DNA from: Thermoproteota archaeon
Lineage (GTDB): Archaea; Thermoproteota; EX4484-205; JAAOZP01
Reading direction: 5' to 3'
Length of the DNA: 64,000 nt
Assembly (NCBI GenBank): GCA_038867695.1
Contig: JAWBXT010000001.1
Location: 169 to 64,168, forward strand
Positions 6,171-50,736 of the stretch are shown one piece after another; positions within the stretch are counted from its first letter, which is position 1; each line of letters opens with the position of its first letter. The notes under the pieces were generated by a model that was not told the origin of the DNA, searched no databases, and saw only the letters and a program-made list of their open reading frames with translations. Position numbers and translations under genes: made by a program.

Positions 6171-6989
6171 TCAAGAACTGTATCCCAGTCTAGTAGCAGC
6201 CTTCAGGCTTTTCGCGTAATTAGTTAACCCTTCTAAGAGGCTTGTTAAATTGCCATATTTCTCTTCCACAAGTTTTACAAAAGCACTCCCAACTATAGCA
6301 CCATCCGCACCACACGATATTACTGATTTCACGTGCTCAGGCTTAGATATGCCGAACCCTACAGCTAGGGGGATTGTATTTACGGTATATGGGTGTAATC
6401 TCCTTATTGTTTGGATAGTGAGCTGAGCAACCTGCTCTCTCATACCGGTTACACCGAAGATTGATACAAGGTATAGGAATCCTGATGTCATCTTCAGTAT
6501 TTTTCCCAGCCTGCTAGAAGATGTAGAAGGAGCTGCAAGGAAAATCGTGTTAATACCATTTTTCTCAGCATTATCCTTGTATTCTTCAGCTTCCTCAATA
6601 GGCAAGTCTGCTACAATTATTCCGTCGACACCGCTCCTATTTGCATCTTCCAAGAATTTTCCAATCCCCCTCTTGAAGATAATGTTATAGTATGTTAACA
6701 GGACTATGGGTATTTCAACAGCCTTTTTCACTTCTTTAACTATGTTTAAAACAGTATCTGGAGTCGTACCTGCATTGAGTGCTCGAACATCAGAAGCCTG
6801 TATCACAGGTCCGTCTGCTATTGGATCAGAGAATGGGATTCCAATCTCAACGATGTCTATCCCTCCCTTTACAAGAGCTTCAACTATTCTAGGAGTATAC
6901 TTTGGAGAGGGGTCTCCTCCAGTCACGTAGGCGATTAACGCGCCTTCATTGCGTTTCTTTAACTCTCGAAATGTTTCAGGAATACTCAT
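6171..6989 (-). CDS. trpA: tryptophan synthase alpha chain
   Basis: TrpA-like sequence (YVTGGDPS...[19 protein letters not shown]), last gene of the trp operon. Confidence 0.9.
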
Positions 6990-8188
6990 ATTTTAACACC
7001 CAATTCGTTTGCAACAACTTCTACATCCTTATCTCCTCTGCCGGATAAGTTTACTATAAGTATCTCGTCCATACTCATTTTCTCGGCAAGCTTCTTAGCG
7101 TAAGCTAAGGCGTGGCACGGTTCTAACGCTGGTATTATACCTTCAAGCTTAGATAATTCGAGGAAAGCCTCAAGAGCCTCGTCGTCTGTAACAGCATCGT
7201 ATTTAACCCTCCCTATACTCTTGAGAAAACTATGCTCCGGCCCTACTCCAGGATAGTCTAGACCTGCTGAAATGCTGTGTGTAGTCAATATCTGTCCATT
7301 ATCGTCTTGTAGAACATAAGATAGCATTCCATGGAAAACACCTTCAGAGCCGGCACAGAGGCTTGCCGCATGCCTCCCCGTATAAAGCCCCTCTCCAGCA
7401 GCTTCAACGCCATAGAGCTCCACGTCTTTGTCTTCGATGAACGGGTAGAATATCCCAATCGCATTACTTCCTCCTCCAACGCAGGCAACTATTGCATCTG
7501 GAAGTCTCCCTTCTTGGGTGAGTATCTGCTCCCTCGTCTCAATACCAATAATGCTCTGGAAGTCTCTGACGATCATAGGGTAAGGATGCGGCCCGACGAC
7601 GGAGCCTATTAGATAATAAGTAGTCTGAACATTAGTAACCCAATCTCTCAAGGCCTCGTTTATCGCATCCTTAAGCGTTTTCGAACCTGATTCAACAGAG
7701 TGTACTTCTGCACCCAGGAGCCTCATCCTGAAAACGTTTAGGCGTTGCCTCTTCATGTCTTCAGCACCCATGTATATCTCAGCCCTTAAGCCCAATGCCG
7801 CGCAGGCCATGGCTGTTGCTACACCGTGTTGGCCAGCGCCGGTTTCAGCAATGACTCTCGTCTTCCCCATGCTCTTAGCTAGAAGCGCTTGGCCTATTGT
7901 ATTGTTTATCTTATGGGCACCGCCGTGTGCCAAGTCTTCTCTCTTCAAATATATCTTTGGGCCGCCTAGTTTCTCAGTAAGGTTGGCTGCATAGTATAGA
8001 GGAGTGGGCCTGCCAGCGAATTTTTCAAGGTAATACTTCAGTTTCTTCTTAAACTCAGGGTCGTCTCGGAATCTTAAGTATGCTTCTTCAAGTTCTTCTA
8101 GCGCAGGCATGAGTGTTTCTGGGACGAATCTTCCTCCGTAACGTCCGTATTTCCCGTCCTTGGGATATTCGTAAACTATTCTATTCAC
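6986..8188 (-). CDS. trpB: tryptophan synthase beta chain
   Basis: PLP-enzyme motifs HGGAHKINN and GGGSNAIG. 4-nt overlap with trpA. Confidence 0.9.
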
Positions 8189-40982: not shown

Positions 40983-41642
40983 ATGTACCCCACAGAGACA
41001 ACGTTACGGCTTAAACGGCAACTCCTGCAAACATGCCAGGAGCTTGCAAGATATGCCGTGGACTCGGTGAGAGAAGTCCATAATCTAGTTTTGGCTTGTT
41101 TTGACGATGATATTTCGAAACTGGATGAGGCTTTGAATAACATAATTGCTCTTAAAAACAGGTCGATAGAGACCAAGAGAAATCTTTCGAATGATCTGGT
41201 TGAAGCAGGAGCAATAATGGTAAGCAGGGAGGATTTCCTGAGGTTAGCATCACCTTTAACCGGAATACCGGATCTCTGTGAGGGAATAGTATACAGGTTG
41301 AGAGAATTCTTTATGAGGAAGAAAACCGTAGAAAAGAATTTAAAGGAACATTTTAAAGAGCTAACAGTCAAGGCTCTAGATTCAGTTGTTAAAATGAGAG
41401 AAGCAATATTTACACTAGGCTTCGAGACTTCTAAAATACAGGAGTTTGCAAAAAACGTTGAAACTTGCGAAAAGGAAGTTGACAACCTTTTCAGATCACT
41501 GGAGATTAAGATAATATTTTCAAAAACTGATGTCTCTACAATACTACTCCTAAAAGATGTTGCAAACCTTATCGAAGAGGTTGTTGATAGGGCTGCAGAT
41601 GCTGCAGACGCTGCGAGAGTACTGTCTCTAAGTGTATTCTAA
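40983..41642 (+). CDS. DUF47/PhoU-like helical protein
   Basis: 219-aa all-helical protein. The assignment is by overall pattern only. Confidence 0.35.
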   Translation: MYPTETTLRLKRQLLQTCQELARYAVDSVREVHNLVLACFDDDISKLDEALNNIIALKNRSIETKRNLSNDLVEAGAIMVSREDFLRLASPLTGIPDLCEGIVYRLREFFMRKKTVEKNLKEHFKELTVKALDSVVKMREAIFTLGFETSKIQEFAKNVETCEKEVDNLFRSLEIKIIFSKTDVSTILLLKDVANLIEEVVDRAADAADAARVLSLSVF

Positions 41643-41645
41643 AAA

Positions 41646-42221
41646 TTGGTGTGCGTAATGAGTGATAACTTAGCTAAAATAACTGCTGAATTGGTGGGGG
41701 ATCGTCTTATAATATGGGATATAAAGGATTCTCAGGAGGTATATCGAATGGGTTTCTTCGGCAAACCGGTTGGTATTCCTAAGCCTAAGGATTCTAACTT
41801 CAATGCTCCCTTAACATTAGACCTATTTGAGGGACTGTATCTTCTAGAAAAGGGAGTGATAAGAATCGTTGACAAAGACGGTAGAAGAGTGGAACCTGAA
41901 CAACTGTTTAGAATAGCTTCTAGAATCCATGAGGATTTTAAAAGTAAGTTTATAGTTTATAGGGATCTGAGGAATAGAGGATTCATAGTTACTCCTGGAA
42001 TAAAATTTGGATGCGATTTCGCGATATATGAGCACGGCCCAGGAATAGATCATGCGCCGGCAATACTCGAAGTTAAGAAGGTAAGCGATAAAATAGACGC
42101 ACCTGAATTCATCCGCGCAGGGAGGCTTGCGACCTCTGTTAAGAAGCTGTTCGTTTTTGCAATATCTGATACTAAAAACAATAATGTTAAATACTTGGTA
42201 TCTAAATGGTGGAAAGCATAA
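41646..42221 (+). CDS. endA: tRNA-splicing endonuclease catalytic subunit
   Basis: Catalytic-domain signature YRDLRNRGFIV...GIKFGCDFAIYEHGPGIDHAPAILEVKK with the Tyr/His/Lys triad context. Confidence 0.8.
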   Translation: MVCVMSDNLAKITAELVGDRLIIWDIKDSQEVYRMGFFGKPVGIPKPKDSNFNAPLTLDLFEGLYLLEKGVIRIVDKDGRRVEPEQLFRIASRIHEDFKSKFIVYRDLRNRGFIVTPGIKFGCDFAIYEHGPGIDHAPAILEVKKVSDKIDAPEFIRAGRLATSVKKLFVFAISDTKNNNVKYLVSKWWKA

Positions 42222-42287
42222 ATTTAAGTAAAATTATAGAGAACCCTACTATTTCGAGTTCATTTTCTTGTAGCTACTTTTGGAGCT

Positions 42288-42659
42288 TTAAACCATACGC
42301 TCAAGTACGTGTCTCTTCAAGCTATCTATCAGATTAGAGTCAAGAGAGTTAATAACCTTAAATATTCTTACATCAGTAACCTTGTAAAGCCGTCTATTTC
42401 CAACTTTGCTTTCCTCGACCATCCCACATTCCTTCAATATCTTCAAGTGACGTGAAACTGCTGGCTGAACAACTCCTGTCCTCTTTACAATATCGCTTAC
42501 ATACTTTCCGCCTTCCTTAAGGAGCTCCATAATCTCTAACCGGGCAGGATCGCTTAGAGCCTTGAACACCTTTGCTCTGAATACTTCTGGTTTCTTCCCT
42601 GCTTGCTTCATGGCTTCAGTATAGTCTTTAATACGTATATTTAAGTATTCACTGTTCAT
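42288..42659 (-). CDS. ArsR/SmtB-family transcriptional regulator
   Basis: HTH segment ARLEIMELLKEGGKYVSDIVKRTGVVQPAVSRHLKIL. Confidence 0.8.
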   Translation of the reverse strand: MNSEYLNIRIKDYTEAMKQAGKKPEVFRAKVFKALSDPARLEIMELLKEGGKYVSDIVKRTGVVQPAVSRHLKILKECGMVEESKVGNRRLYKVTDVRIFKVINSLDSNLIDSLKRHVLERMV

Positions 42660-42836
42660 AAGAAAAATAACAAAAATTAAATAAATACCCTAGTGAAAAA
42701 AAGCTTCTAAAAACAATGTGGAAGTTAAATGGGAATAATAGATAAATGATTCTCTGCTAAAGTCGAATTTAGACATAATGATACATATGAGACATTAATG
42801 GAAAATAACGTATCTAGCTGTTTTTCCTCTAAGAAG

Positions 42837-43004
42837 TCCCGCGGGCTGGATTTGAACCAGCGACACTCCGGTTTCTGTCCGCCCGGTAGGCTGAACGCCT
42901 CCACCCGCGGTGGAGGACTACAGCCGGAAGCTCTACCAGGCTGCTCTTTAAATACTGGATTTGCATACGTGCAAGCCCAGTATTTAAATCTGAGCTACCG
43001 CGGG
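42837..43004 (-). tRNA. tRNA-Tyr (anticodon GTA) interrupted by two introns (D-loop ~48 nt, anticodon loop ~44 nt)
   Basis: Reverse complement: acceptor CCCGCGG/CCGCGGG with the archaeal Tyr identity pair C1:G72 and A73. D-arm GCTC...AGCCTGGTAGAGC is split by a palindromic insert (ATTTAAATACTGG...CCAGTATTTAAA). Anticodon stem TCCGG/CCGGA with loop CTGTAG plus a second insert. T-arm GCTGG-TTCAAAT-CCAGC. Confidence 0.7.
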
Positions 43005-43028
43005 ACGTTTTTGTTATACGTCTACGTC

Positions 43029-43042
43029 CTTTTTAACTTTTC
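43029..43042 (-). promoter_or_regulatory. putative BRE/TATA (GAAAAG TTAAAAAG) about 25-38 nt upstream of tRNA-Tyr
   Basis: A/T-rich box at the expected archaeal promoter distance. Confidence 0.3.
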
Positions 43043-46890: not shown

Positions 46891-49800
46891 ATGAGTCAAG
46901 AAGTTGAGATAAAGCAGATAGATTCGATAAAGTTTGGAGTACTGTCTCCCGCTGAGATCAGGAGACTCTCCGTAATGGAAATAACGACTGACGAGACATA
47001 TGATCAAGATGGGCTCTCAGTTCCCGGCGGAATAATGGATACACGTCTAGGCACTATAGAGCCCAGGCAGAGATGCAAGACTTGCGGCAACCTGCCTGAT
47101 AAATGCCCAGGACACTTCGGCCACATAGAACTACCTGTTCCAGTAATACATGTTTCATTCGCACGGGAAATTGAGCGCGTTTTACAATCTACTTGCAGAC
47201 AGTGTGGCAGAATCCTCCTGCCAAACGATAGAATAAGCCATTACAAAGAGAAGATGAGGGAGTATGAGGATCTCTATGGTATCGTACCAGAACAAATCTT
47301 CGATCAGATAAAGGATGAAGTTAGGAGGGCTAACAGGTGTCCACACTGCGGTGCTGAGAAATACCAGATAAAGCTTGAAAGACCTACGAAATTCTATGAG
47401 AGAGATCCGGAGGGGGCTCTCAGACTATTAAACTCTCGGATAATAAGAGAGCGTTTAAACTCGATCCCCGATGAAGACCTTAGGCTCCTAAACATAGATC
47501 CGGAGGTCGCTCATCCTGCATGGTACGTTATAGAAGTTCTTCCGGTTCCGCCAATTCAGGTAAGACCCTCGATAATACTTGAAACTGGAGAAAGGTCTGA
47601 AGACGATCTGACCCATAAGCTTGTCGACATAATAAGGACGGCGCGCAGGATAAGGGAATACATAGAGTCCGGGGCATCCCCACTAATAATACAAGATCAT
47701 GAGGATCTTCTGCAATATCACGTAACAACATATTTCGACAACGAAGCTGTTGGAATACTCCCAGCTCAGCATAGGACCCGCAAGACACTTAGGACGCTTG
47801 CACAGAGGCTGAAGGGTAAGGAGGGGCGTTTCCGGAAAAACCTTTCTGGAAAGAGAGTTGACTTCTCCGCCAGGACAGTAATATCTCCTGACCCCTATCT
47901 CGACATCGATGAGGTTGGAGTCCCCGTGGAGGTTGCTAAGATACTCACAGTGCCTGATAGAGTTACTTACTGGAACAGGGACTGGTTAATGCAGCTCGTC
48001 AGAAACGGACCGTTCACTCACCCCGGCTCAGAATATATAATTAGACCTACTGGTGCTAAGCATAAGCTCCAGTTCGTTGAGAATAGGGAAGCACTGGCTG
48101 AAGCACTCGATGTAGGCTTCATTGTCGAAAGACACTTACTTGATGGGGATTTCGTTATTTTCAACAGGCAGCCCTCGCTTCACCGCCTCTCAATGCTCGG
48201 GCATAGAGTAAGAGTTCTTCCCGGGAAGACCTTCAGACTGAACCCCAGCGTCTGTCCGCCCTATAACGCTGACTTCGACGGGGATGAAATGAACCTCCAT
48301 GTTCCACAGAGCATCGAGGCCTCTGTAGAAACAAGTATGTTGTTAGGAGTCAAAAACCATTACCTTACTCCGAGGTATGGCGCACCGATAATGGGAGCTA
48401 TAAGAGATTTCATAACAGGGGCCTACCTCCTAACTAGAAAAGACACCTATCTCACTAAGGAAGAGTTTACGAGAATATTGTATGCTGCAGGTTATGAGGG
48501 GGATCTCCCAGAGCCCGAGGTTAAAACGCCAGAACCCCTATGGTCAGGCAGGCAGGCGGTCAGTCTTCTGCTCAGGAGAGACTTCAACTACGTTGGCAAA
48601 ACCAGTGTAGGAAGTACAGCAAGCAAAGAGGAGGCGGAAATAGTAATAAAGAACGGTAAAATAATATCTGGAGTTATCGATAAGGCTTCAATAGGCGCTG
48701 AGAAAGCGGATACAATCCTACATAGGATAATAAAGAAGTACGGGCTTGAGGAGGGCCATAGATTCCTATCCTCGTTCGAGAAAATGGTTAGGGAGTTTAT
48801 TCTATTAAGAGGCTTTAGCTTCAGTTACCGGGATGTAGAACTGCCTAGAGACGTTCAGGAGCGAGTTGAAAGGGAGGTAGATCAGGCGGATATTGAGGTG
48901 GAGAAACTGCTTGAAGACTGGAAGAGAGGCAGGATAAAGAGAATTCCAGGTATGAGTGAAGAAGAAAGCCTGGAGGCTTACATAATGGATGCTCTTTCAA
49001 ATGTTAGGAGTAAAGTAGGTAGCCTCGTTTCATCGTCACTAGGAATGGATAACAGCATGGTTGTTATGACCAAGACGGGGGCAAGGGGCTCGGACCTTAA
49101 CGTTGGTCAAATATCCGGTTGTCTAGGGCAGCAGGCTTTAAGGGGCAAGAGAATCTTCAAAGGATATTTTGAGAGGCCTCTACCCCATTTCCATAGGGGG
49201 GACCTAGGCCCGCTTGCAAGAGGATTCATAAAATCCAATTATTACCAAGGCCTTTCACCCATAGAGCTTTTCTACCACTCCATGAGCGGGCGGGAGTCTC
49301 TTGTTGATACTGCAGTCAGGACTCAGCAGAGCGGATATCTACAGCGCAGGCTGATACATGCCCTAGAATCTCTCAGGGTAGAGTACGATGGAACCGTAAG
49401 AGACTCCTACGGCAATATTATCGACATAATATACGGTGAAGACGGTGTAGACCCTTCAAAGAGCGACCATGGGAAGTCTGTCGACGCCTTCAGGATAGTG
49501 GAGGAATACTCATTATCTTTGCCGAAGAAGGGAAATCCAGCGAGTAAACAGGCTGTTAAGAAGATGATTGAAGAGCACGGCAGGATACTCCCAACCAGCA
49601 TCAAGAAGGAGGCTTTCCACGCTATAGTCTCTAAGCGTCTCCCAGCATCAGCCGCTAGGAAAGTTGTGGAGAGAATAGTTGAAGAGTATAAGAGGGCGCT
49701 CGTGGAAGCCGGCGAGAGCGTTGGAATCGTCGCAGCACAATCCATAGGAGAACCTGGGACTCAGATGACCCTCAGAACTTTTCACTACGCTGGTGTCAGA

Positions 49801-50736
49801 GAGGCGAACGTAACTCTAGGGTTACCGAGGCTTATCGAACTTCTTGATGCTAGGAAGACGCCGAAGACGCCGATGATGACCGTCTATCTAAAAAGCCCCT
49901 ATAACAAGGATTATAGCAGGGCACTTAGAGTCGCTAGGAAGATGGTTTATACGACAATCGAGGACGTTGCCAGAATAGGGTTGAAATCAACTACTGCGCA
50001 TGATTACCTCGTCATACACCCTGTTAAAGAATGGTTGGCAGAAAGAGGGCTTTCTGAAGACGATATACAAAAAGTACTTAAGGCACTGAACCTGAAGTTT
50101 AACGTTAAAAGCGACGGCAGCTTTGAAATACCCATTAGAAACGACTCGCAGAAACTCGAGACTAAGATAAGGAAGACTCCCGTGAGTGGCATAACTGGAG
50201 TCAAGGGGGTTCTCTTAAAGGAGGAGAATAATGAATACTGTATAATAACAGAGGGGAGCAATCTATTGGAGGCCTTCAATATTCCTGAGGTGGATTACAC
50301 CAAGACTATAAGCAACGATATCCATGAAATCGCTGAAGTACTTGGCATAGAGGCGGCAAGAGCAGCCTTAATAAACGAGATGTGGAAGACTCTGAATGAA
50401 CAGGGCTTGGACGTTGATTGGAGACATCTCTCACTCGTTGCGAGTGCAATGACCCAAGATGGAACTGTGAAGCAGATAGGCAGACACGGGGTAAGTGGAA
50501 GCAAACAGAGTATTCTGGCTAAAGCCGCTTTCGAGAGGGCTGTTCAAGTCCTCGTTGAGGGGGCTGTAGCAGGGATGGAGGATAAGCTACTCGGTATGAC
50601 TGAGAGAGTTCTCGCAGGCTCGGAAATTTACGCTGGAACAGGGATGGTCAAGGTATATGTTGATATAGGAGGTTTTACGAGGGGCAGGGAGGGTGCTGAG
50701 GATGTCCGAGAAAACTTCGTTAAGCAGCAGGCTTGA
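46891..50736 (+). CDS. rpoA: DNA-directed RNA polymerase subunit A, apparently fused A' + A'' (1281 aa, single ORF)
   Basis: N-terminal Zn motifs, NADFDGDEMN catalytic loop, YGEDGVDP (A' C-terminal region), then in the same frame MIEEHG...AAQSIGEPGTQMTLRTFHYAGV (trigger-loop start of A''). There is no intervening stop. Confidence 0.85.
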   Translation: MSQEVEIKQIDSIKFGVLSPAEIRRLSVMEITTDETYDQDGLSVPGGIMDTRLGTIEPRQRCKTCGNLPDKCPGHFGHIELPVPVIHVSFAREIERVLQSTCRQCGRILLPNDRISHYKEKMREYEDLYGIVPEQIFDQIKDEVRRANRCPHCGAEKYQIKLERPTKFYERDPEGALRLLNSRIIRERLNSIPDEDLRLLNIDPEVAHPAWYVIEVLPVPPIQVRPSIILETGERSEDDLTHKLVDIIRTARRIREYIESGASPLIIQDHEDLLQYHVTTYFDNEAVGILPAQHRTRKTLRTLAQRLKGKEGRFRKNLSGKRVDFSARTVISPDPYLDIDEVGVPVEVAKILTVPDRVTYWNRDWLMQLVRNGPFTHPGSEYIIRPTGAKHKLQFVENREALAEALDVGFIVERHLLDGDFVIFNRQPSLHRLSMLGHRVRVLPGKTFRLNPSVCPPYNADFDGDEMNLHVPQSIEASVETSMLLGVKNHYLTPRYGAPIMGAIRDFITGAYLLTRKDTYLTKEEFTRILYAAGYEGDLPEPEVKTPEPLWSGRQAVSLLLRRDFNYVGKTSVGSTASKEEAEIVIKNGKIISGVIDKASIGAEKADTILHRIIKKYGLEEGHRFLSSFEKMVREFILLRGFSFSYRDVELPRDVQERVEREVDQADIEVEKLLEDWKRGRIKRIPGMSEEESLEAYIMDALSNVRSKVGSLVSSSLGMDNSMVVMTKTGARGSDLNVGQISGCLGQQALRGKRIFKGYFERPLPHFHRGDLGPLARGFIKSNYYQGLSPIELFYHSMSGRESLVDTAVRTQQSGYLQRRLIHALESLRVEYDGTVRDSYGNIIDIIYGEDGVDPSKSDHGKSVDAFRIVEEYSLSLPKKGNPASKQAVKKMIEEHGRILPTSIKKEAFHAIVSKRLPASAARKVVERIVEEYKRALVEAGESVGIVAAQSIGEPGTQMTLRTFHYAGVREANVTLGLPRLIELLDARKTPKTPMMTVYLKSPYNKDYSRALRVARKMVYTTIEDVARIGLKSTTAHDYLVIHPVKEWLAERGLSEDDIQKVLKALNLKFNVKSDGSFEIPIRNDSQKLETKIRKTPVSGITGVKGVLLKEENNEYCIITEGSNLLEAFNIPEVDYTKTISNDIHEIAEVLGIEAARAALINEMWKTLNEQGLDVDWRHLSLVASAMTQDGTVKQIGRHGVSGSKQSILAKAAFERAVQVLVEGAVAGMEDKLLGMTERVLAGSEIYAGTGMVKVYVDIGGFTRGREGAEDVRENFVKQQA

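Follow-up and report, generated by a model that had tools for sequence, protein, structure and literature searches.

A two-intron tRNA-Tyr gene near the gene for a loop-bearing splicing endonuclease subunit in a Brockarchaeota-related archaeon

In Crenarchaeota, Thaumarchaeota and Aigarchaeota, tRNA genes with two or three introns, introns in the D-arm and relaxed versions of the bulge-helix-bulge (BHB) splicing motif are established, and so are their co-occurrence with a loop-bearing form of the splicing endonuclease EndA and differences in intron content between close strains (PMC4090602, PMC4033280, PMC3293823, PMC5829648, PMC12397907). For the enzyme of Aeropyrum pernix, the role of the loop lysine K44 has been described (PMC3241643, PMC6379350), and the loop together with its lysine allows D-loop and bulge-helix-loop introns to be cut with no other factors (PMC3241643, PMC6379350, PMC5829648), the D-loop intron of A. 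pernix being cut more slowly than an anticodon-loop intron (PMC3241643). Here we analyze a stretch of 64,000 nucleotides from a Thermoproteota archaeon (the window; contig JAWBXT010000001.1 of assembly GCA_038867695.1), in which a tRNA-Tyr gene interrupted by two introns lies close to endA. We conclude that positions 42837–43004 on the minus strand hold a real and probably working tRNA-Tyr gene of an uncultured hot-spring archaeon. Taken as a whole, the locus is very probably a functional two-intron tRNA-Tyr(GTA) gene of an uncultured Brockarchaeota-related member of the Thermoproteota, with a promoter of its own and with two protein-spliced introns that we infer to be removed by the loop-bearing EndA.

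Gene anatomy and intron borders

The Rfam tRNA model RF00005 matches 42837–43004 (−) over its full length (38.7 bits, E 1.3e-4). The gene is 168 nt long, and we number its precursor along the minus strand with window position 43004 as position 1. Exon 1 (pre-tRNA 1–15; 42990–43004, −) supplies tRNA positions 1–15, comprising the 5′ strand of the acceptor stem, U8 A9, the 5′ strand GCUC of the D-stem, and A14 G15. It is followed by intron 1 (pre-tRNA 16–64, 49 nt; 42941–42989, −), which lies in the D-loop between G15 and C16, and by exon 2 (pre-tRNA 65–87; 42918–42940, −), which covers tRNA positions 16–37 with the remainder of the D-arm, the 5′ strand of the anticodon stem, and C32 U33 G34 U35 A36 G37. 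Intron 2 (pre-tRNA 88–132, 45 nt; 42873–42917, −) sits at the canonical position 37/38, and exon 3 (pre-tRNA 133–168; 42837–42872, −) contributes tRNA positions 38–73 with the 3′ strand of the anticodon stem, the variable loop, the T-arm, the 3′ strand of the acceptor stem and the discriminator A73. Removal in silico of both inserts, together 94 nt (49 + 45), leaves a 74-nt product that ARAGORN recognizes as tRNA-Tyr(GTA) with a normal cloverleaf, a C1-G72 pair and A73, and this 74-mer has the same sequence as the exons of intron-poorer orthologues. The original prediction, made from the letters of the DNA, had proposed a 168-nt tRNA-Tyr gene with about 94 nt of intervening sequence, in the form of a palindromic insert in the D-loop and a second insert after position 37. 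Its dimensions agree with the Rfam match, the in silico splicing and the ARAGORN result on the 74-mer, and both positions proved correct by splicing, orthologue comparison and structure counts.

A promoter element resembling a transcription factor B recognition element (BRE) and TATA box, GAAAAGTTAAAAA, was read from the sequence at 43030–43042 (−) and ends about 25 nt upstream of the mature 5′ end; across the orthologous loci, the element GAAAA(A)GTTAAAAA is kept at this distance. The minimum free energy (MFE) fold of the whole precursor has a z of −7.9, and the encoded 3′ end lacks CCA. ARAGORN did not report the gene on the raw window and, with its intron options, missed or mis-typed it; Rfam and manual splicing succeed. 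The gene is thereby of the kind that standard finders can miss, all the more as the gene table of the contig lists protein-coding genes only. An Rfam tRNA scan of the window revealed no second tRNA-Tyr.

Orthologues were gathered via contigs encoding close EndA relatives and by a 3′-exon scan of species-representative genomes. This gave 17 further loci in hot-spring metagenome-assembled genomes (MAGs) of Thermoproteota and 'Candidatus Brockarchaeota', 18 with the window, from at least 12 species-level genomes. All three exons are identical in the 17 further loci (100%), while the introns differ in presence as well as in length and sequence. Taken by itself, the window sequence leaves the border of intron 1 ambiguous within a repeated CAG. 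Because orthologues with intron-less D-arms exist, the D-loop segment is a true insertion and must lie between positions 13 and 16, and the BHB register then places it at 15/16. Intron 1 consists of an 18-bp hairpin followed by GAGC-AG at its 3′ end, and this GAGC pairs with the 5′ strand of the D-stem, G10-C13 (GCUC), to form a 4-bp central helix. The 5′ bulge, A14 G15^A (3 nt; ^ marks the cut), is closed by the intron hairpin, and four base pairs across from it the 3′ bulge, A G^C16, holds the 3′ cut. This structure forms in the unconstrained MFE fold. Over the five genes with a long intron 1, 99.1% of cells are paired, compared with 21–49% in a control with slid partners; compensatory change is seen at two pairs, and wobble pairing preserves the central helix (GAGC, GAGU, GGGU). 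A shuffle control was not significant with these five sequences only, and we therefore rely on the slide control and the register for the intron 1 structure. If each cut is placed behind the second base of its bulge, the intron-less sequence is restored exactly, and the same rule fits intron 2 and the canonical intron of the tRNA-Thr(GGU) gene of the window, which provides an internal calibration.

In intron 2, the central helix is formed by CUGU (32–35) and ACAG and lies between the bulges A36 G37^U and A A^A38. All four pairs of this helix are present in each of the 14 distinct orthologue variants, including three with GCAG instead of ACAG, in which U35 is still paired, as U-G. The anticodon stem and the 3-nt bulge A-A^A38 are likewise present in all 14, making the 3′ side strict. 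On the 5′ side, the bulge reads A36-G37^N across the variants, the helix behind it has just 0–2 bp, and the outer helix is replaced by a variable intron hairpin with compensatory changes. Intron 2 is thus in the canonical place yet has a relaxed motif. At both introns each border falls in a 3-nt bulge with a 4-bp helix in between, both motifs being relaxed forms, and the folding of the inserts that had been proposed as a check on the original prediction in this way yields BHB-like borders at both. On a construct with intron 1 removed, ARAGORN proposed instead an intron 2 of 30 nt that ends before an internal ACCGG and leaves a tRNA with a long variable arm. A second ACCGG is indeed found inside the intron, but no 4-bp central helix is in register at that border, whereas the CUGU/ACAG helix and the 3-nt bulges are perfect at the 45-nt border in 14/14 variants, even in those with insertions near the 3′ border. 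Archaeal tRNA-Tyr is, moreover, class I with a short variable loop, and we consider the 30-nt intron hardly credible.

Intron 2 also holds a 14-nt block, CAGCCUACCGGGCG (42880–42893, −), while the rest of the intron varies. The block is unchanged in 13 of the 14 orthologue variants, with a single change from G to A in locus L008, and is able to form a mini-hairpin of its own. Its complementarity to the D-loop extends over 9 bp; among 2000 shuffles, 179 contained a run of such length and 472 matched the duplex energy. Pairing with the D-loop was rejected as the cause of the conservation, being not beyond chance, and the G to A change in L008 fits the local mini-hairpin equally well.

Intron states at the orthologous loci

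The intron at 37/38 is present in every locus, with a length of 45–51 nt, and the variation in presence lies elsewhere in the gene. Five loci have no insert in the D-arm (L008, L009, L011, L015 and L021), one of which, L009, carries an extra 16-nt insert at 44/45. Four loci (L005, L006, L007 and L020) have a 21-nt insert at the same 15/16 site in the D-loop, in three distinct sequences as L005 and L006 are the same. The long 15/16 form, 49–54 nt, is shared by the window with L013, L018, L022 and L023. The remaining loci, L014, L016, L017 and L019, carry a different insert of 22–25 nt at 22/23, the central helix of which is formed by U17a-U20 (UGGU) with ACCA, GCCG, GUCA or GCUA, all pairing as judged by eye. 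The 22/23 and 15/16 introns never co-occur in the tRNA-Tyr loci examined. Altogether, the inserts evolve as introns do: the exons are constrained, while the introns are absent, short, long or in another place and show compensatory changes in their helices.

These comparisons bear on whether the tRNA-Tyr gene might be a pseudogene, disabled by a palindromic insertion into the D-loop similar to a miniature inverted-repeat transposable element (MITE). Such a view would account for the near-perfect palindrome of the insert and for the missing ARAGORN call. It is disfavored because the exons and the promoter are invariant across the 18 loci, whereas the introns and flanks diverge freely. The insert, moreover, ends in a mimic of the D-stem that stands in the exact BHB register and is held by wobble-compatible changes, and the window has revealed no other tRNA-Tyr. 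A mobile repeat was rejected as the nature of the palindrome, since the long palindromic intron has no other copy in the window and its matches in a metagenome scan are further tRNA-Tyr genes only. We therefore regard a disabled gene as very unlikely, and read the locus as a probably working tRNA-Tyr gene with two introns.

The intron states are patchily distributed on a rough tree. In L022, the 150-nt flanks are 69–77% identical to those of the clade with the 22/23 intron (L016, L014 and L019), while the 24-nt leader and the long 15/16 intron resemble those of L023. As judged from these sequences, this pattern suggests that an intron passed from one lineage to another by replacement of a short patch. 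It is tempting to go further and to speculate, as an extended reading that we consider rather improbable, that the tRNA-Tyr locus is a site of ongoing turnover, at which D-arm introns (short 15/16, long 15/16 and 22/23) and the 44/45 intron are gained, lost and exchanged by short-patch recombination across the invariant exons and promoter, and that the 14-nt block of intron 2 has a function of its own, either as a protein-binding mini-hairpin or through a D-loop pairing that would order the two splicing events.

The EndA subunit and the proposed splicing pathway

The endA gene (41658–42221, +) encodes the catalytic (alpha) subunit of the tRNA-splicing endonuclease, a protein of 187 aa with the Pfam domains tRNA_int_endo_N and tRNA_int_endo. 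The open reading frame (ORF) opens at a TTG at 41646, and the deposited NCBI EndA protein, 100% identical, starts at the ATG at 41658. The original prediction thus named the catalytic subunit correctly, while its length of 191 aa counts from the upstream TTG. The best solved relatives are the alpha subunit of A. pernix (3P1Z_B, 4e-48), 2CV8 of Sulfolobus tokodaii and 2ZYZ_B of Pyrobaculum aerophilum. In the 191-aa numbering, Y128, H136 and K167 align with the A. pernix catalytic triad Y125/H133/K164, and R160 and W188 align with the bulge-binding pair R157/W183, the A. pernix residues being those named in PMC3241643. In a MAFFT alignment, the subunit has a Crenarchaea-specific loop, KPVGIPKPKD, the codons of which occupy 41763–41792 (+). 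This insertion of 10 residues is common to the alpha subunits of A. pernix, S. tokodaii and P. aerophilum and absent from those of Methanocaldococcus jannaschii (alpha4) and Methanopyrus kandleri, and its lysine, K46 in the 191-aa numbering and K42 when counted from the ATG, aligns with A. pernix K44.

With these residues, the EndA of the window appears from its sequence to be the right kind of enzyme for both introns. The original prediction had held that non-canonical introns call for an endonuclease of broad specificity, of crenarchaeal (alpha-beta)2 or epsilon2 type. A broad-specificity enzyme fits the Crenarchaea-specific loop and its lysine; the epsilon2 option is excluded by size and domain layout. 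The epsilon2 enzymes of the archaeal Richmond Mine acidophilic nanoorganisms (ARMAN) have a protomer of about 390 aa with three units (alphaN-alpha-betaC), and this type was rejected for a protein of 187 aa that comprises a single N-terminal domain and a single catalytic domain; the match to the ARMAN structure 4FZ2 is also much weaker (5e-18). An alpha4 homotetramer of the M. jannaschii type, without loop and of narrow specificity, was rejected as well, because the loop is present and EndA scores 77 bits against M. jannaschii 1A79 vs 167 bits against the A. pernix alpha subunit.

In our model of the pathway, the BRE/TATA promoter would drive synthesis of a tRNA-Tyr precursor of about 170 nt, from which, in one order or the other, two protein-spliced introns would have to be removed. 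In intron 1, the 3′-terminal GAGC would imitate the 3′ strand of the D-stem and pair with G10-C13 as the central helix, the long intron hairpin would close the 5′ bulge, and the 3′ cut would be made in the unclosed bulge. Intron 2 would be cut at 37/38 by way of the anticodon stem, the AA^A38 bulge and the CUGU/ACAG helix. As the cutter we infer the splicing endonuclease with the catalytic subunit encoded by endA, 0.6 kb from the tRNA gene, and the loop and lysine of this subunit would confer cleavage of relaxed and off-position motifs. After cleavage, an RNA ligase would join the exon halves, and CCA, which the gene does not encode, would have to be added.

Several observations weigh against this reading. 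The 3′ bulge of intron 1 has no closing outer helix, as A9 and U8 are unable to pair with C17 and U17a; for this reason the motif is a relaxed, bulge-helix-loop-like one. In L007 and L020, the short intron ends in GAGA-AG and not GAGC-AG, so that one of the four pairs of the central helix becomes a G10-A mismatch; a relaxed-specificity enzyme may tolerate it, or splicing may be impaired. By nearest-neighbor energies at 37 °C, the fold needed to cut intron 2 (−77.2) is 10 kcal/mol worse than an alternative (−87.2) in which the D-loop and G30-G34 are both paired to the invariant block of intron 2. Finally, no gene for a beta subunit was found in the window, either when its 281 ORFs were searched with the alpha subunit by phmmer or when 10 ORFs that are small or lack annotation were compared with Pfam. 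The last point carries little weight because the beta subunit is too divergent for a sequence search from alpha: the crenarchaeal beta chains in the PDB could be reached neither from alpha nor from the beta part of M. kandleri 5X89, even at E ≤ 10. The window, moreover, is a few percent of a genome.

The missing partner raises the question of whether the endonuclease might be a homo-oligomer of the loop-bearing alpha subunit alone and not an (alpha-beta)2 enzyme. In line with this idea, an EndA paralogue was not found in the window, and the loop (L1) occurs beyond the classical Crenarchaeota, in TACK (Thaumarchaeota, Aigarchaeota, Crenarchaeota and Korarchaeota) and Asgard lineages (PMC5829648). 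However, each of the nearest relatives with a solved structure is the alpha subunit of a heterotetramer, Thaumarchaeota, Crenarchaeota and Aigarchaeota are reported to have (alpha-beta)2 enzymes as a rule (PMC5829648), and both the divergence of beta and the small share of the genome searched speak against reading much into its absence. We thus consider an enzyme made of alpha alone unlikely and favor an (alpha-beta)2 composition, in which a beta partner would be encoded elsewhere.

Neighborhood of the locus and comparison with described systems

Between the end of endA at 42221 and the tRNA-Tyr gene lie 616 nt, which contain the gene of an ArsR/SmtB-family helix-turn-helix (HTH) regulator (42288–42659, −; Pfam HTH_5 3.7e-17, NCBIfam HTH_metalloreg 2e-23), in agreement with the arrangement first described from the sequence, in which an ArsR gene separated endA from a tRNA-Tyr gene about 0.6 kb away. 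Immediately upstream of endA, at a gap of about 15 nt, is a PhoU_div/DUF47 gene (40983–41642, +). The PhoU_div/DUF47-endA pair is also seen in L024 (a more distant Brockarchaeota MAG), L025 (a JGI lineage) and L026 (Caldiarchaeum), and it is conserved more widely than the pairing of endA with tRNA-Tyr. In L025 (EndA 58% identical), the gene after endA is one for tRNA-Phe(GAA) with an intron (L025 5657–5759, −), and about 1 kb beyond this lies the gene (6563–6994, −) of archease, the cofactor of the RtcB tRNA ligase.

Could the position of tRNA-Tyr beside endA serve a function, for instance by letting the enzyme be regulated together with a demanding substrate, possibly through ArsR? The order PhoU_div-endA-ArsR-tRNA-Tyr-rpoH-rpoB is kept in 17/17 loci of the clade, and the neighbors of endA in L025, an interrupted tRNA gene and archease, could be read in the same sense. 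However, these 17 loci are close relatives (EndA 81–100% identical) with wholesale synteny, and the order may be simply inherited; in L024 and L026 no tRNA flanks endA; and tRNA-Tyr lies on the strand opposite to endA with its own promoter. A functional linkage was rejected because the adjacency is lost outside the clade, and we give it only a slim chance. The proximity of the two genes is clade-level synteny, not a demonstrable functional link. A further proposal concerned the acceptor stem, which can extend to 9 bp (G-2:C+1, U-1:A73) and had been taken to suggest a leader/trailer processing helix. The extension is present in the window, but the leader and trailer bases differ and are unpaired in most orthologues, and the extension is probably due to chance rather than a conserved processing helix.

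Interrupted tRNA genes make up 3/5 of those in the window. In the tRNA-Ala(UGC) gene (1459–1544, −), the variable region is interrupted at 44/45 by a non-canonical intron of 14 nt, UGGUUCCCCCGGAG; the 3′ strand of the anticodon stem, CCGG, forms a 4-bp helix with a CCGG of the intron, and removal of the intron gives a clean 72-nt tRNA-Ala. The 16-nt insert in the tRNA-Tyr gene of L009 is analogous in place. The tRNA-Thr(GGU) gene (2087–2180, −), labeled 'tRNA-???' by ARAGORN, has a 20-nt canonical 37/38 intron with the central helix UUGG/CCAG. Farther along the window, the largest subunit of RNA polymerase is encoded by one ORF of 1281 aa (46891–50736, +) with Pfam Rpb1 domains 1–5, unsplit into A′ and A″. 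Among archaea, the unsplit form of rpoA is a typical trait of Thaumarchaeota and is uncommon elsewhere.

The two-intron layout is already well known in this archaeal group, and the locus is a new example, not a new phenomenon; it shows every feature of the class that is testable here. In a Brockarchaeota-related lineage, it adds an instance to the known association of loop-bearing EndA with disrupted tRNA genes. We note that 18 loci with identical exons and five intron configurations offer the kind of 'snapshot' of intron gain and loss called for in reviews of the field (PMC4033280), and that this set of intron states could serve studies of the origin and movement of BHB introns. That so many intron states occur at a single locus is slightly beyond the ordinary and leaves the classification unchanged.

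Among described systems, the multi-intron tRNAs of Crenarchaeota/Thermoproteales and Caldiarchaeum, which SPLITS/tRNAscan-SE class under 'non-canonical intron', resemble the window gene in combining a 37/38 intron with non-canonical, D-arm introns and relaxed BHB motifs (PMC4090602, PMC4033280, PMC3293823). That class also has up to three introns per gene and, as in this clade, differences in presence and absence among close relatives (PMC4090602, PMC4033280, PMC3293823). The host differs, being a Brockarchaeota-related member of the Thermoproteota, a lineage for which the literature searched contained no report of tRNA introns. Position 15/16 of tRNA-Tyr is not among the positions quoted in PMC4090602 (20/21, 22/23, 25/26 and others), a list that is explicitly open-ended. 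M. kandleri pairs a D-loop intron (20b/21) in pre-tRNA-Glu with a heteromeric (alpha-beta)2 EndA (PMC5829648); its alpha subunit does not have the specific loop and is a poor cutter of relaxed motifs, whereas the EndA of the window has the loop. With the crenarchaeal (alpha-beta)2 alpha subunits (3P1Z_B, 2CV8 and 2ZYZ_B), the EndA described here shares the two-domain build of about 185 aa, the Y/H/K triad, the R/W pair and the loop lysine; it differs in being known from sequence and in that the 64-kb window yielded no partner beta. A close parallel for intron 1 is the pre-tRNA-Thr2(UGU) of A. pernix, which likewise has a D-loop intron, one that is cut in vitro by the loop-bearing (alpha-beta)2 EndA alone (PMC3241643). 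The A. pernix intron has a canonical BHB and is the only one of its gene, whereas in the tRNA-Tyr gene of the window the 3′ bulge of the D-loop intron is unclosed and a second intron follows at 37/38.

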